This document shows positions 17,144-27,309 of a stretch of 64,000 nucleotides of DNA, in pieces. Positions within the stretch are counted from its first letter, which is position 1. The number at the start of each line of letters is the position of its first letter. The notes beneath the pieces are model-generated. The model saw only the letters and a list, made by a program, of their open reading frames with translations, did not search any database and was not told the origin of the DNA. Source of the stretch: Escherichia phage EPFV3-03/2025; the sequence record PV435126.1; one strand, written 5' to 3'. Both the position numbers and the translations under genes were made by a program.

Positions 17144-20100
17144 ATGAGCATGTGGTCGTTCGATTTTGAGGCCTCTGGCTTGCTGGAAGACCCAGATCTT
17201 TATTATCACTGCGGTTTGTTTAAAGAGCTGAATAAGAACCGTTTTATGCTGTTCCTCCCCCTAAATGACCGCACACACTACTCTGAAGAGGATGTGGAGA
17301 AAGCTAAGAACTTCATTCTGGCAAAAAAGACCCTTTATACAGATTTTGAGGCTCGCATAGCAGATTTTTCAGAGTTGGAAGGCTGGCTTACAGGTAATTC
17401 AGATTGGTCACCTACGGCTTTGAACTGTCATAACTGCTACAGCTACGACTTTATGCTGATGGAAAGATTATCCGGTATTCATTTTGATATGTTCCGTGAT
17501 CCTAAATGCATGGGAACTATCAACGACCACCAGGTTAATCTGTTTGATACGTTAGCGATGAGTCGAATCTTGTGGCCTGACCGCCCTTTGCCAAAAGGTT
17601 GTCCGGACGCAGTATTCAATCCAGTTACCAAGAAAATGCAGCCTGTTGGGCCTCATGGCCTTATGGCATGGGGCTATGCCCTTGGTAACCAGAAAGTTCA
17701 AATCGATGACTGGCGTGAGCTTCCGCTGTGGAAGTATGTGGATCGTGTGTTCGAGGACGTTATCATTCAGGAGTTGCTCTGGAAGGAGTTGGTAGCTGAA
17801 TCAAAAGGTGTATTCTACGGCAAATCTGACATGCAGAACTTTATGTATGACCCTGCCAAAGAGAAGCCTAAAGGATTCAAGAAGATTACCTGGAAGAATG
17901 CATTACGCCGAGGCATGCTGCAGCATTTCCTGATGGAGCTGCAGGCTCGACAGGGTGTGTATTTCGACATAGATGGGGCTATTGCTTTACGTGACCGCTG
18001 CGATGCGTGGATGAAAGAGATCGCTGATCGTGTTGAACCACAACTTCCTTTAAAAGAGTTATCAATGTCTCAGCGGCCTAAGTTCCCTGAAAAGCCGTTT
18101 AACCAGGATGGGACAATCTCTAATAACGGTTGGAAATGGTTAAAAGACAAGCTTGGCTATCCTGTGGATATGGGTGCTTTAGAATTCAAAGCTCCGCCTA
18201 AGCGAGCCTTTACCTCCACAGGAGATGTCAGCAAAATGGGGATAAAATGGTGTGAAGAGATGGGCTGCAAAGACCCCGATAAGATGGCTGATTTCTTAAG
18301 GGGGTATATTAAAGGAACCTCTACACCGCACCCTTTACCTAAAGAACTAATGGATCAGGCAATAAGTGATCTGCAGCAGAAGCGGATGCCTGACTGCAAG
18401 ATACCTATGAAGATCAGCAACCAGGACGACATCAAGCGATACCTGATCAGTGCTGGTTGGCTCCCAACAATGTGGAGAACTAAGGATGTAACTAAAGACA
18501 GCAAGAAGAAAGCTTTACCTGATGCAGATGTTGATGCACGAGTATATGCATATATGGACGAGCTTTTGGAGTCAGAGTATTGTGACCTGATTATCAACTT
18601 CTGGAACAAAACTGATGCCAAGTTCCAGACAACCGTGCACAAGTTCCGAAGCTTCCCTAACTCAGAAAGGATTAAAAAGGAAGTGTTTGGGAAGATACGT
18701 AGAAAAGCCAGAGCGCTTATTACTTCTCCGCAACTGAAAGATACGTTTGGACACCTGTGCCCGAATCTTGAAAAATTGAACGGGGAGATGGCTAAAGATA
18801 TCGTTTTGTGGTTATCATTGCGAAACCGCAGATCGGTCCTTGATCCAATCAAGGAGGATAAGGTTGATACTGGTCTTCTTAATCATCCACGTTTGAAGAT
18901 TGACCATAAGCTTCCTGCTAAAAGTTCTGGATTAACAAACACTTCAAGACAGAAACACAGCATTTGTGCAAACATGCCTAAACCATCTCCTAAAGTGGTT
19001 ATGGGTAAAGAGATGCGTAGTCTGTGGGGTGTTCCTCCAGGATACTTTGAGATCGGTATTGACGGGTCTAACTTAGAGCAGCTTATTGGGGCTTGGGGTG
19101 CCTTTGAGTTTGACAACGGCCTGTATTATGATGTTGTAAGTAACGGCGATGCACACTGTTATTCAGGAGATACACAAATTCTCACGGAGAAAGGGTGGGT
19201 GAGGTTTGAAGATCTTGATCCGGGAACACAAGTGTTCCAGTACGATCACAACACCTCGTCGATGAACCTTGTTACTCCATTAAATTACGTTAAGCGTAGT
19301 TATTGTGGGGATATGTATCATTTCCACAACAGCAGTGTGGATTTTATGGTTACAGATCAACACAGGATGCTGACCGTGGATCACAGAAGCAATAAATTGT
19401 TTGAAGATTTGGCAAAAGACCTGAAAGCAGGTAAAGGGTCTAATTCAGGAAGAAGGTTTATCCATGCGGCAGAGTTTTATGGGAATACAACCTTATCTCC
19501 TGCCCAGGTTAATTTGCTTATTGCTATTCACGATGATGGGTACTTGCATACAAATAAGGACGGCAGCATCGTGTGCAGGATTCAGGCCGGGAAGGGCAGA
19601 AAAGTTGCAACGCTTTTAGATACTTTTTCTGCTCTAAGCCTTAGTTATGTAGAGCAGAGCGGGAAAACCACAAAAGGAGGCTTACTGGCGAGAAGGTTCC
19701 AATTCCACGTTCCGTCCTGGGTATTTGAGTTTTTGGACAGCAATAAGGATTTCACCTACAACCTGATGGACCTTGATAAAGAATCTAAAAACCTGTTTAT
19801 AGCTTCTTTATCTAACTGGGACGGGTGGGTATCTCCCGAAGGTGGAAAAGTTGCCTACTACTCTCAGGCCGAGTGCAGGAAGAAATCTGTAGAGGTTGTG
19901 TCTGCGCTGGCTACTCAGTGTGGTTTACGGAATAATACGGTGGCGATTCACAAAAAAGGTCGTTCCGTACAGCACAGAATCACGATTGGTAGCAAACAGA
20001 GAGCAGGGTTGCTGACACTATCTAAAGAGCCTGTCGGGGTGAGCGGTTCTTTGGTTTATTGCGTTACCGTCCCTTCTGGAGCAATCATTGTGAGAAGGAA

Positions 20101-20536
20101 TGGTAAAGTGGCAGTGTGCGGTAACTGTAATAACGCCAAAGCTTACTCTTCTGTAGCAGGCAAGGAGATTTCCCGTAACGATGGTAAGCCTGTCACGTAC
20201 GGTGTTATGTACGGGGCACAAAAAGATAAAGTTGCAGACATGCTGGATATCTCTCCAGAGTTGGGGCAAAGGGTAATCGATGCGCTTTGGGATGCCAACC
20301 CAGGTCTTAAGGGGCGTAAAGAGGATCTGGAGAAATTCTGGGAAGCAACAGGTAAGAAATTTATCTACTCTTTTGACGGTCATGCCATCTGGACCCGATC
20401 TAAACACTCTTTACTTAATGCATACCAACAGAATGGTGGTGCATCGTTGTGTGACTTAGTTGGGATACTCATGCACCACCAAATGGTGAAGCGTGGGTGG
20501 TACGATGAAGGTGTCCGTCGTATTATTTATTACCAT
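17144..20536 (+). CDS. family A DNA polymerase, exon 1 (contains intein)
   Basis: 3'-5' exo motif SFDFEASG; motif A-like DGSNLEQL...GDAH; T7-like motif B RNDGKPVTYGVMYGAQ after the intein; ORF lacks motif C unless spliced to exon 2. Confidence 0.9.
19157..20125 (+). mobile_element. intein (323 codons) with LAGLIDADG-like endonuclease motifs inside DNA polymerase
   Basis: Begins CYSGDTQIL (block A), TDQH (block B), LLIAIHDDGY and FIASLSNWDGW (LAGLIDADG-like), ends ...VYCVTV...RRNGKVAVCGN followed by Cys. Confidence 0.75.
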
Positions 20537-20812
20537 AAATAACATTGTGGCTTCATAGAGTAATCTATGTCGAATAACCTCTTTAACTGCGGGAAGCCTA
20601 AACCTTATGGCAAGGTAATCCGCAACGAAGCGCTCAAAAGAGCGAACGCTCAGAGGCCATTCCGAAAGGAAGTAGACCAGCAAGTGCGGTCGAAATGGGA
20701 GGATTCCTGTGGTTGCTTATCATAGGAATATGAGATGGTCCGATCCTACGTGAAAACGTATGGCTATGCACGTAATGGTGCGGGGTAGCTTAACGACCTA
20801 CCTGAACTATTG
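20537..20812 (+). mobile_element. group I intron (276 nt, no ORF) in DNA polymerase gene
   Basis: Starts after exon U (cat|), ends with G before gat; P-like aactgcgggaag 20585-20596, Q-like aatccgcaac 20617-20626, S-like gagatggtccga 20732-20743; splicing restores in-frame HDE motif C. Confidence 0.6.
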
Positions 20813-21166
20813 GATGAGTACCAACTTCAAGTCCCTGACACGCCTAAGTATAAGACTGTGTACACCTTCGACACAATTGAAGAACTGGAAGCATTTAAGG
20901 CAGAACAGGAGGCCAAACTTCATGTGTTTGACGGTCATAAGTACAAAAAGGCACGCAAGGATGAGAACGGAAACGAAGTGGTTGACAGAGACGGAAACAC
21001 GGTGTACGATCCTATTCTGAACGATGACGGAAAGCTTGAACTTATCTGGAGCCCTGTGGGTGAAATGGTGGTGCATTGCTTCTGGCAAGCTTCTAAAATG
21101 ATGGGCGTCCCGTTCCAGATCACAGGTGAATACCTGTGCGGTCGTAATTGGGGTGATTGTCACTAA
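20813..21166 (+). CDS. family A DNA polymerase, exon 2 (C-terminal 117 aa)
   Basis: Same frame as exon 1; DEYQLQV completes YYH-DE motif C; C-terminus VPFQITGEYLCGRNWGDCH resembles Pol I terminal G-NW-H. Confidence 0.7.
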   Translation, partial: DEYQLQVPDTPKYKTVYTFDTIEELEAFKAEQEAKLHVFDGHKYKKARKDENGNEVVDRDGNTVYDPILNDDGKLELIWSPVGEMVVHCFWQASKMMGVPFQITGEYLCGRNWGDCH

Positions 21167-23957: not shown

Positions 23958-24368
23958 ATGGTGTCTCCTTTATGTTGTTCAAATAAAATCGGAGATTCCA
24001 TAATGGAACAAATGAACGATCAAGCGTCGGTTGCGATGAACGAGCAAGAACAACCTCAAGAATTTTTCTTAGGGTTAAGCAAAGATCAGGTGTCTCTCCT
24101 GCTAGTGCTCTCTTCTTTCATGGGGAGACTTCAGGAGCTCACACAACAACCAGAGGCTGAACAATTATTTCAGGCTCTGCGCGAAGAAGAAAAATATCGT
24201 CGTTTGGATTATGCCTTAGGTTGGGTAGCTCAGCAACGAGATATGCTAATGGCCCTTTCTGGGACGACAAGTTTTGCAATGGGCCTGTTGGCTCAAGTGC
24301 AAGACAAATTAATTCAAGCAGGGTTTGCACACACAGCAAACACCAACGAAGAACAAGGAGACAAATAA
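23958..24368 (+). CDS. hypothetical protein (136 aa)
   Basis: ORF preceded by AAGGAG. Confidence 0.45.
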   Translation: MVSPLCCSNKIGDSIMEQMNDQASVAMNEQEQPQEFFLGLSKDQVSLLLVLSSFMGRLQELTQQPEAEQLFQALREEEKYRRLDYALGWVAQQRDMLMALSGTTSFAMGLLAQVQDKLIQAGFAHTANTNEEQGDK

Positions 24369-25594
24369 TGAGCGTTATTCAACAATTTGCCAACCCGATG
24401 AATCCGCGTGAAACTGTTTTACTGGCTCACGGTATGATTAAACGTGTCAGCATCAAACCTATCAAAGGTGCTGATCCTACAACAGGTATTAAAACCACTG
24501 TGTGGCAAGGTAAGAAAATCGAGTCCAGTCACACCATCTCTTTACTGATTTCTGAACTGGATTCTTCTGATAACCTACTTCAAGGTGGTGAAGAAGTTTG
24601 GATCAGCATGGGTGATAAATTGCTCAAACCAGGTCATCAAGATTCCGTCTCTGTTAAAATTGATGACAAGTGGGAAACAGTAACGCCGGGATGGATCGTA
24701 AATATCCCTTTAAAGGCAAATGAGCATAACGGTAAGACCTACTACAAAGGCTCATTGGCTAAAATGGTTAAGCTGGGGGCAGGAGAGGCTCCAGCAGCAC
24801 CACAGCAACAAAAACAGCAACAAGGCACACAATCACAAGGCCAGAAGCAGAAACCTCAGCAGAATGCCAATCAGGACGTTTTACGCATCTATGGTGATGT
24901 GACTCAGATTGTTGGCAATGTGGTTACTGTCAATGACCACAAGATCGGTGAAGGTGCTATGGTTGTCTCCGATGAGCAGCTTAAAGACCTGATAGTTGGC
25001 GGTCGTGTTGCAGCTATTGTTGACAAAGACACCGGGAATATTATCAGCGGCTTTAAGGCCTACCCACCTAAAGCAGAGAACGGCACTCAAGGTTCTGGTG
25101 GCAAGCGTAAATCCTCTTACGACCCTATTGGTGTAGAGACGGGGCACAGCATCAATGCGTTGCAAATCATCCTAGATCGCGGATTCAAGGTTGACAGCCC
25201 TTTAGATGTGGCTAAAACATTGCACGTGGTCACCATCGAGCTTAAGAAAGAGTACGCTCAAGCCACCAACCGGACCGAAGATGAAGTAGGTGCCAGTGTT
25301 GGTAACGCGGTATTGAACGCTTGTCGCCGTATTGACAAGAAAACGAAAGTTGATGATTTTGCAGCAGCAATTACTGCAGAGGCAAAAGATGTCTTGACTA
25401 ATCTTGCTGAACCGTTGTATGATTGGATCAAGAACGGTGCTGGAGCCACTGACCATCAAGAGCCTCAAGCTGCCAAACAGGAAGGCGCTCCACAGCAAAA
25501 CACTGTAGACGCCCCTCCTGTAGATGATGACGGAGATGACCCGATGGATCAGAATCCAGCACAGTATGACTTCTGTGATGACATACCTTTTTAA
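24368..25594 (+). CDS. SSB-like protein with canonical SSB C-terminal tip (408 aa)
   Basis: Ends ...YDFCDDIPF (bacterial SSB-Ct DDIPF motif); Gln-rich linker; start at ATG 24368 after AAGGAG; N-terminal fold not verified. Confidence 0.6.
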   Translation: MSVIQQFANPMNPRETVLLAHGMIKRVSIKPIKGADPTTGIKTTVWQGKKIESSHTISLLISELDSSDNLLQGGEEVWISMGDKLLKPGHQDSVSVKIDDKWETVTPGWIVNIPLKANEHNGKTYYKGSLAKMVKLGAGEAPAAPQQQKQQQGTQSQGQKQKPQQNANQDVLRIYGDVTQIVGNVVTVNDHKIGEGAMVVSDEQLKDLIVGGRVAAIVDKDTGNIISGFKAYPPKAENGTQGSGGKRKSSYDPIGVETGHSINALQIILDRGFKVDSPLDVAKTLHVVTIELKKEYAQATNRTEDEVGASVGNAVLNACRRIDKKTKVDDFAAAITAEAKDVLTNLAEPLYDWIKNGAGATDHQEPQAAKQEGAPQQNTVDAPPVDDDGDDPMDQNPAQYDFCDDIPF

Positions 25595-25611
25595 CATCTA
25601 GTTAACATAGC

Positions 25612-25637
25612 CCTGCCCGAAAGGGTGGGGCATTTTT
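25612..25637 (+). terminator. rho-independent terminator (copy 2 of duplicated hairpin)
   Basis: CCTGCCC-GAAA-GGGTGGG stem-loop then GCATTTTT; identical hairpin to 14210. Confidence 0.65.
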
Positions 25638-25656
25638 GTATAAGGAGATCTGAAAA

Positions 25657-26435: not shown

Positions 26436-26861
26436 ATGACCTATGAAATGCCAAAACTGATTCGTGATGATGCCCAAAACGCTCACACCATTATTATGGG
26501 CAAACGCATGGATATTATTTGTCATAAAGATTTCTGGGAAGGAAGTTACTTCACAGAGTATTTTGGTAAACTGGACAATGGTCTGCTGATCCAGTTCTAC
26601 ACCGATGCGGAAAACAACATTCACTGGGAGTTCGAAACTGAAGATATTCATAAACTTTTCACCTTCCTCGGTATTAAGGTTGAGGCCAAGTTTGAAGAAG
26701 GCGAGTGCGACGATTGTGGATTCTACGAGGTAACAGATTTCTATCTCCCAAGTGGTGAGAACCTTTACTATGAAAGCCACTTCGGCAACTCAAATATGCC
26801 ACAAGGTTGGGATGAGTTTTTTGAAATTGCGGAAGAGGAGCTGGCATACCGTGATTATTGA
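26436..26861 (+). CDS. hypothetical protein (141 aa)
   Basis: ORF whose stop overlaps the start of the macro-domain gene. Confidence 0.5.
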   Translation: MTYEMPKLIRDDAQNAHTIIMGKRMDIICHKDFWEGSYFTEYFGKLDNGLLIQFYTDAENNIHWEFETEDIHKLFTFLGIKVEAKFEEGECDDCGFYEVTDFYLPSGENLYYESHFGNSNMPQGWDEFFEIAEEELAYRDY

Positions 26862-27309
26862 TACTGTAGAGGGAGATTTAATCTCCCTTTTTAAGAGCGG
26901 TGCTGGTCACCTGATCCACGGTTGTAACTGCTTCCACACAATGGGCAAGGGGATAGCAAAACAGATTGCCCGTGAGTTCCCTCAAGCATTGGCAGCTGAC
27001 AAAGAGACCAGACACGGTTGCCTAAGTAAACTGGGTGCGTTCTCCCGATGGGAGCACTTATCTCCGAGAGGTATTGTCTACGGAATCAATCTGTATACTC
27101 AGTTCTACCCAGGACCTAATGCTGAATATTTCTCAATCCTGAAAGGCTTTGAGCTAGTCAATGAGGTATTCAGTGGATCGACTTTACCATTCTACATCCC
27201 TAAGATCGGGTGCGGCATAGGCGGTTTGAAGTGGGAGCACGTAGAGGACGTTATTAACCTTGCCACTTTTGATATGAATATTATCGTGGTGGAGTACAAA
27301 AAGTGTTGA
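26851..27309 (+). CDS. macro-domain (ADP-ribose binding/processing) protein (152 aa)
   Basis: HGCNCFHTMGKGIAKQI and IPKIGCGIGGLKWE resemble the two glycine-rich macro-domain motifs; GTG start 26851 after GAAGAGGAG. Confidence 0.55.
   Translation: MIIDTVEGDLISLFKSGAGHLIHGCNCFHTMGKGIAKQIAREFPQALAADKETRHGCLSKLGAFSRWEHLSPRGIVYGINLYTQFYPGPNAEYFSILKGFELVNEVFSGSTLPFYIPKIGCGIGGLKWEHVEDVINLATFDMNIIVVEYKKC

Follow-up and report, generated by a model that had tools for sequence, protein, structure and literature searches.

The 64 000-nucleotide stretch of DNA analysed here (the window) is that of an rV5-like coliphage (Vequintavirus). Its + strand carries a gene for a 408-residue protein that ends in the C-terminal tip of bacterial single-stranded DNA-binding proteins (SSBs), by which host SSB draws in enzymes of repair and replication. 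A sequence-only reading had proposed either a divergent phage SSB or a mimic that uses this tail to capture the partners of the host SSB. That proposal is supported and agrees with the published reading of the orthologue Bas52_0087.

Gene and domain layout

The features of the locus, from the upstream gene to the terminator, are as follows.

24003–24368, + strand: gene for a helical protein of about 121 residues (phrog_7310, function unknown), whose TAA stop overlaps the ATG of the SSB-like gene
24355–24360, + strand: strong Shine–Dalgarno sequence AAGGAG, 7 nt before the ATG at 24368
24368–25594, + strand: SSB-like gene (phrog_4477, orthologue of Bas52_0087), an intact open reading frame of 408 codons plus stop
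24368–24784, + strand: residues 1–139, OB fold 1 (OB1) from structure prediction, the putative ssDNA-binding domain
24785–24874, + strand: residues 140–169, disordered Gln-rich linker
24875–25075, + strand: residues 170–236, optional small second β-barrel from structure prediction (OB-fold-2 of the preprint discussed below)
25076–25114, + strand: residues 237–249, short disordered Gly/Lys-rich linker
25115–25438, + strand: residues 250–357, four-helix domain, better conserved across the family than the other folded parts
25121–25123 and 25418–25420, + strand: codons of Asp252 and Tyr351 in the four-helix domain, the positions mutated in DRT10 escape phages
25439–25564, + strand: residues 358–399, disordered acidic Pro/Gln-rich tail of variable sequence and conserved acidity
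25565–25591, + strand: residues 400–408, tip YDFCDDIPF of the bacterial SSB-Ct type with a free C-terminus
25592–25594, + strand: TAA stop, identified by comparison with relatives as the empty insertion site for an endonuclease VII-like homing endonuclease
25610–25641, + strand: intrinsic terminator (9 bp GC-rich stem, GAAA loop and T-run), starting 16 nt after the stop

The ATG start is well supported by the position of the AAGGAG sequence and by the overlap of the start codon with the stop of the preceding gene (TAATG), through which the two genes are translationally coupled. A TTG start at 24221, giving 457 residues, was rejected: the homologues all begin with MSV and none uses the longer form, a strong Shine–Dalgarno sequence precedes the ATG, and the additional stretch is the neighbouring gene in another frame. 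The translation ends in ...NPAQYDFCDDIPF, directly followed by the stop, and its C-terminal peptide is written as PAQYDFCDDIPF. The terminator is common to relatives, where it lies 3′ of the endonuclease insert. The phrog_7310 gene is found directly 5′ of the SSB-like gene in at least three genera (22–28% identity), and this conserved position suggests that its product is a possible functional partner of the SSB-like protein. The orthologue of this upstream gene in the JLBYU08 record is labelled 'putative single-stranded DNA-binding protein'.

Structure prediction gives two β-rich domains where the sequence-only reading had suspected two OB-fold-like regions, and the Gln-rich linker that it had noted is borne out (13 Gln in 30 residues). 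Structure comparison places OB1 with confidence as SSB-like, within the OB-fold class of SSB, RPA and PriB. Structural matches of the protein include RPA32, RPA70, Thermus SSB and D. radiodurans SSB. Class-conserved positions in the family alignment comprise the aromatic residues His55, Trp78, Trp102 and Tyr126 and the basic residue Lys97, which would fit an ssDNA-stacking surface. Disorder is predicted for residues 359–408. RecO is also among the structural matches, and RecO too has a helical domain behind its OB fold, which would suggest a recombination mediator or strand-annealing factor. Such a role is very improbable: the RecO matches cover the OB part only and are equalled or bettered in score by dozens of SSB, RPA and PriB matches, a long, disordered acidic tail that closes with an SSB-Ct tip is a hallmark of SSBs, and no other SSB that could be mediated was found by tblastn or among the JLBYU08 labels. 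RecO, which also has a zinc-binding motif, binds the SSB tip and does not itself carry it.

The claim that the N-terminus is unlike the canonical SSB OB fold also holds. Pfam returned nothing for the protein even at E ≤ 1, searches of PDB sequences (phmmer and profile) found no relative and matched the tail only, and in hhalign the OB domain of E. coli SSB reached a probability of only 0.1%. Sequence homology to canonical bacterial SSBs was dropped as an explanation, since these searches link the tail alone. No Pfam or PDB relative of the four-helix domain was found.

Family, replication context and a described orthologue

The protein matches phrog_4477 (function unknown) from end to end (E = 4.4e-172, residues 1–408 against profile positions 1–393 of 393). 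Proteins of 95–99% identity occur in 113 phage records and one of at least 99% in one more, while homologues below 60% identity occur in 166 further records from phages of Klebsiella, Salmonella, Cronobacter, Pectobacterium, Enterobacter, Erwinia and Serratia; of the 281 phage records with the family, the majority call it 'hypothetical protein'. Searched exhaustively with the family profile, 1.84 billion representatives yielded 248 clusters at E ≤ 1e-3. Two architectures are seen, a long form of about 350–420 residues like that of the window and a short form of about 260–300 residues without the middle barrel. The second barrel is absent from most members (mean gap fraction 0.63 over family representatives), and Asp252 is 83–86% conserved across the family.

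Two sets of public records in this family carry questionable labels. In KR296694.1 (Salmonella phage 40; L002 4001–5182) the homologous gene is split into three open reading frames labelled 'terminase large subunit', 'hypothetical protein' and 'single-stranded DNA-binding protein'; the split probably reflects frameshifts or sequencing errors, and the labels are spurious. About 20 'Campylobacter phage' records of the MG0656xx series (MG065661.1, MG065654.1 and MG065656.1 among them), with Campylobacter jejuni given as host, are 90–99% identical to rV5-like or phi92-like coliphages at the SSB-like locus, and to judge from this similarity their host labels look doubtful.

In the window, genes for a PIF1-like helicase, a DnaB-like primase/helicase and a DNA polymerase lie 5′ of the SSB-like gene, and the gene order of this replication region is the same in relatives. 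The short form of phi92-like phages is likewise sited after helicase and polymerase. Two very distant short-form members come after a primase/helicase and a gene of polymerase size; one of the two loci gives an explicit match to family-A polymerase. JLBYU08, a close relative whose complete genome has 236 features, encodes a polymerase, primase, helicase, ligase, RNase H and exonucleases, and its only SSB labels are those of the orthologue of the window gene and of its small upstream neighbour. Searches by tblastn with E. coli SSB, T7 gp2.5 and T4 gp32 gave tail-to-tail similarity only. Given the position in the replication module and the lack of another SSB in the JLBYU08 labels or by tblastn, this gene is the only plausible SSB of these phages.

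Other features of the region are recorded as side observations. A macro-domain protein (26752–27309, + strand; partial PF01661 match, E = 2.5e-6) is encoded about 1.2 kb downstream, and a weak Macro_2 match lies near the short-form locus L011. The DNA polymerase gene holds both an intein and a group I intron. The intein (in 17144–20542, + strand), an insertion of about 324 residues at 672–995 relative to JES2013 with flanks 99% identical, is recognized from its start, CYSGDTQIL, and a weak Hint-domain match. The intron (20527–20762, + strand) matches Rfam RF00028 (64.7 bits, E = 4e-16), and splits the gene, so that the open reading frame 20810–21166 supplies the final ∼117 residues of the polymerase.

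By its sequence the window protein is the orthologue of an already described protein, Bas52_0087 of phage RudolfGeigy/Bas52 (QXV84166.1), with which it shares 96.6% collinear identity over 100% of its 408 residues and has Asp252 and Tyr351 at the same numbering. The match on MZ501102.1 covers 75981–77204, and the bas52_0087 gene spans 75981–77207. Genomic position and flanking genes are the same, and OB-fold-1, OB-fold-2, the four-helix bundle, the disordered region and the C-tip are predicted in both; the tips differ (YSFDDDIPF in Bas52_0087, YDFCDDIPF in the window protein).

Escape mutants of Bas52 were isolated against DRT10 (UG17), a reverse-transcriptase/SLATT system (bioRxiv 10.64898/2026.04.29.721553, 30 April 2026). 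In that study both escape mutations, D252V and Y351C, lie in Bas52_0087 at a predicted oligomer interface, the wild-type protein supplied in trans strengthened restriction, expression of the protein alone neither triggered DRT10 nor harmed the cell, and SbcB overexpression weakened the defence (10.64898/2026.04.29.721553). Phold and AlphaFold2 were reported to give 'an SSB-like architecture' made up of a pair of OB folds, a bundle of four helices, a disordered stretch and the C-tip FDDDIPF, and DRT10 to restrict Vequintavirinae and Stephanstirmvirinae, and also Queuovirinae and Markadamsvirinae (10.64898/2026.04.29.721553, Fig. 4A text). The first two of these BASEL subfamilies both carry the SSB-like family. 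The SSB-like reading given here coincides with the published one. The present analysis adds family-wide conservation of the tip, the two architectures, the upstream partner, the lack of another SSB and a possible masking of the tip linked to an endonuclease. The DARNA and type IX retron preprints have no bearing on the phrog_4477 family.

The C-terminal tip and its extension

The SSB-type tip identified by the sequence-only reading is far above chance expectation. The final nine residues are identical to those of E. coli SSB (MDFDDDIPF) at seven of nine positions, and the open reading frame 24368–25594 is the only one in the window to end in DDIPF; from composition, 1.3e-4 such frames would be expected among the 361 six-frame open reading frames of at least 60 residues, and 4e-3 for the looser pattern [DE][DESC][IVL]PF. 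The family profile aligns with E. coli SSB only in the tail (residues 151–178). Across 138 aligned representatives, conservation is highest in the last nine residues (mean frequency of the top residue 0.68, compared with 0.30 for OB1 and 0.39 for the helical domain), Pro407 and Phe408 are each present at 94%, and 111 of the 138 sequences end exactly in xPF. The tip is kept down to about 31–33% identity while the linker before it varies, and its codons differ synonymously between lineages (ATA/ATC/ATT, CCT/CCG/CCA and TTT/TTC), indicating that selection acts on the tip peptide.

A genuine phage SSB might use its tail to contact the phage polymerase or primase-helicase and to auto-regulate the OB fold, in the manner of T7 gp2.5 and T4 gp32, the resemblance to the host tip then reflecting shared chemistry or ancestry and not host recruitment. 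The polymerase, primase/helicase and PIF1-type helicase encoded next to the gene are in keeping with this, as are the family-wide acidity of the tail (median net charge −7 over the last 30 residues), the precedent of T7 gp2.5, in which the C-terminal Phe is required for polymerase interaction, and the minority of tips that depart from the strict bacterial consensus (ends LDF, VAF, PPF and IPW). It is nevertheless unlikely, as the family tips are mostly DDIPF, DDLPF or DDVPF, the bacterial SSB-Ct consensus, and most fit D-D-[DES]-[ILV]-P-F far more closely than chemistry alone needs; members from enterobacterial phages match the enterobacterial SSB tip over 7–11 residues. Members ending in ...PPPF or ...DDLPF, when searched against cultured phages for their hosts, matched enterobacterial phages only (32–34% identity).

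The same tip could instead belong to a decoy or hijacker, the many copies of which would titrate or redirect host SSB-interacting proteins (ExoI, RecQ, RecJ and UDG, for example) away from host SSB, thereby protecting phage DNA or shutting down host replication and repair, with ssDNA coating not being the main task. The tip being the most conserved segment of the family, the identity of some members with host SSB over the last 11 residues (PPMDFDDDIPF) and the modulation by SbcB/ExoI dosage of the DRT10 response that the protein triggers (10.64898/2026.04.29.721553) all point in this direction. The confident SSB-like OB fold, the fixed position in the replication module and the lack of another SSB argue for a genuine ssDNA-binding role, however, and overexpression in E. 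coli is non-toxic (10.64898/2026.04.29.721553), which is not expected for an effective titrator of essential SSB partners. The decoy reading is decidedly unlikely also because whole lineages bury the tip under a C-terminal extension.

This extension is linked to an endonuclease VII-like homing endonuclease gene (phrog_1035, E = 4e-41). In JES2013, Bas54 and rV5 the gene lies immediately 3′ of the tip Phe codon; the stop codon is missing, and ...DDIPF runs on into 15 further residues, APVGLQYGKSRI[YH]AL (the fused extension is written as APVGLQYGKSRIHAL). In this long variant the endonuclease start codon falls within the Tyr codon of the extension. In Bas58 a shorter endonuclease variant starts 8 nt after a retained TGA and the tip is free. 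The insertion site is empty at 25591/25592 of the window, which has no extension. Among 60 evenly spaced records sampled from 115 of Vequintavirus, the site is empty in 34, like that of the window, 13 show the span of the long tip-burying variant (∼1/5) and 11 that of the short variant, the assignment of span to variant having been checked in three genomes only. The loci with an insert or extension are as follows.

L001, 10225–10867: endonuclease insert/extension locus
L007, 601–1187: endonuclease insert/extension locus
L013, 7186–7230: extension in another genus, followed by only a 10-codon endonuclease remnant and then a terminator
L014, 2160–2493: extension in another genus, together with the endonuclease
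L015, 7877–7924: endonuclease insert/extension locus

The phi92-like phage ESCO9 also has the extension with an endonuclease remnant only (10–11 codons in L013 and ESCO9). All sampled Justusliebigvirus matches (at least 93% identity; 56 records in those bands) run through the extension, so that it is apparently present throughout this genus, and most phAPEC8-like phages stop at the tip. Simple read-through into the endonuclease gene is only a partly adequate explanation, since L013 and ESCO9 keep the extension with a mere remnant, and it is strained further by Bas58, which has an endonuclease without the extension. The first seven residues, A-P-x-G-L-Q-Y, lie 5′ of the endonuclease ATG and are kept through synonymous changes. 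Selection on the protein, a constraint from ribosome binding or from the target site, and co-conversion during homing could each account for this.

In SSB-Ct recognition, the free α-carboxylate of the terminal Phe forms part of what is recognized. The buried-tip variants thus imply one of three things: that the phage can do without a free tip, that it tolerates the extension, or that the tip is under regulation. That the 15-residue extension serves as a natural on/off mask of the SSB tip, as opposed to a neutral scar, is quite unlikely. If it did, selfish-element traffic at the tip codons would toggle the access of the phage SSB to the host SSB interactome, and perhaps change how the phage is perceived by DRT10 and other defence systems.

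Proposed function and comparison with known systems

Taken together, the protein is likely to be the phage's own replicative ssDNA-binding protein with a host-type tip, a member of the non-canonical family phrog_4477 from the replication modules of large lytic phages. The N-terminal OB fold would bind ssDNA at the phage replication fork, as suggested by its fold, its conserved aromatic and basic positions and its genomic context. The small second barrel, which most members lack, may be an optional accessory OB fold, and the four-helix domain could mediate self-assembly or cooperativity, in line with the interface location of the escape substitutions in the preprint. Tip identity with host SSB and established SSB-Ct biology suggest that the free Phe carboxylate would dock into the SSB-Ct pockets of host proteins such as ExoI/SbcB, RecQ, PriA or Pol III chi, so that host partners would be either recruited to phage ssDNA or competed for with host SSB. 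From the genetics of the orthologue Bas52_0087 only, the protein, or an ssDNA state that it creates, appears to be needed to activate DRT10; contacts between tip and partner might change ssDNA processing in the infected cell, and DRT10 would sense this change.

Bacterial immunity is repeatedly triggered by phage SSBs (Retron-Eco8, DRT9, DARNA and now DRT10), and for Vequintavirinae, Stephanstirmvirinae and related phages the family can be annotated as the likely replicative SSB. An unrelated body with a host SSB tip offers a clean way to find out which of the host's SSB partners are needed, or neutralized, by a virulent phage, and the free-tip (Bas52 and Bas58) and buried-tip (Bas54) natural variants of the BASEL collection provide a ready genetic test.

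One comparison is with the short forms of phi92-like phages (Stephanstirmvirinae), such as ESCO9_00171, annotated as 'single-stranded DNA-binding protein', which share OB1 (42% identity over 88 residues), the helical domain (32% over 159 residues), the tip DFDDDIPF and a site downstream of helicase and DNA polymerase, but lack the middle barrel. In Justusliebigvirus the 15-residue extension APIGLQYGRNFLHCF comes after the tip. RPA and the Deinococcus and Thermus SSBs also have more than one OB fold per polypeptide, whereas the second barrel here is small and missing from most family members, and RPA has no counterpart of the helical domain and host-type tip. An acidic C-terminal tail with a terminal aromatic residue is shared with T7 gp2.5 (DUF2815), the net charge here being −12 over the last 51 residues with Phe at the end; however, no sequence similarity was found by tblastn with gp2.5 as query, the domain architecture differs and gp2.5 ends in ...DGDF in place of the host SSB consensus tip. 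With E. coli Ssb (PF00436) the protein shares a disordered linker followed by an acidic DDIPF-type tip at a free C-terminus. It differs in an OB domain without detectable sequence homology, in the additional small barrel and four-helix domain and in being more than twice as long, and it probably assembles through its helical domain and not as the OB–OB tetramer of bacterial SSBs.
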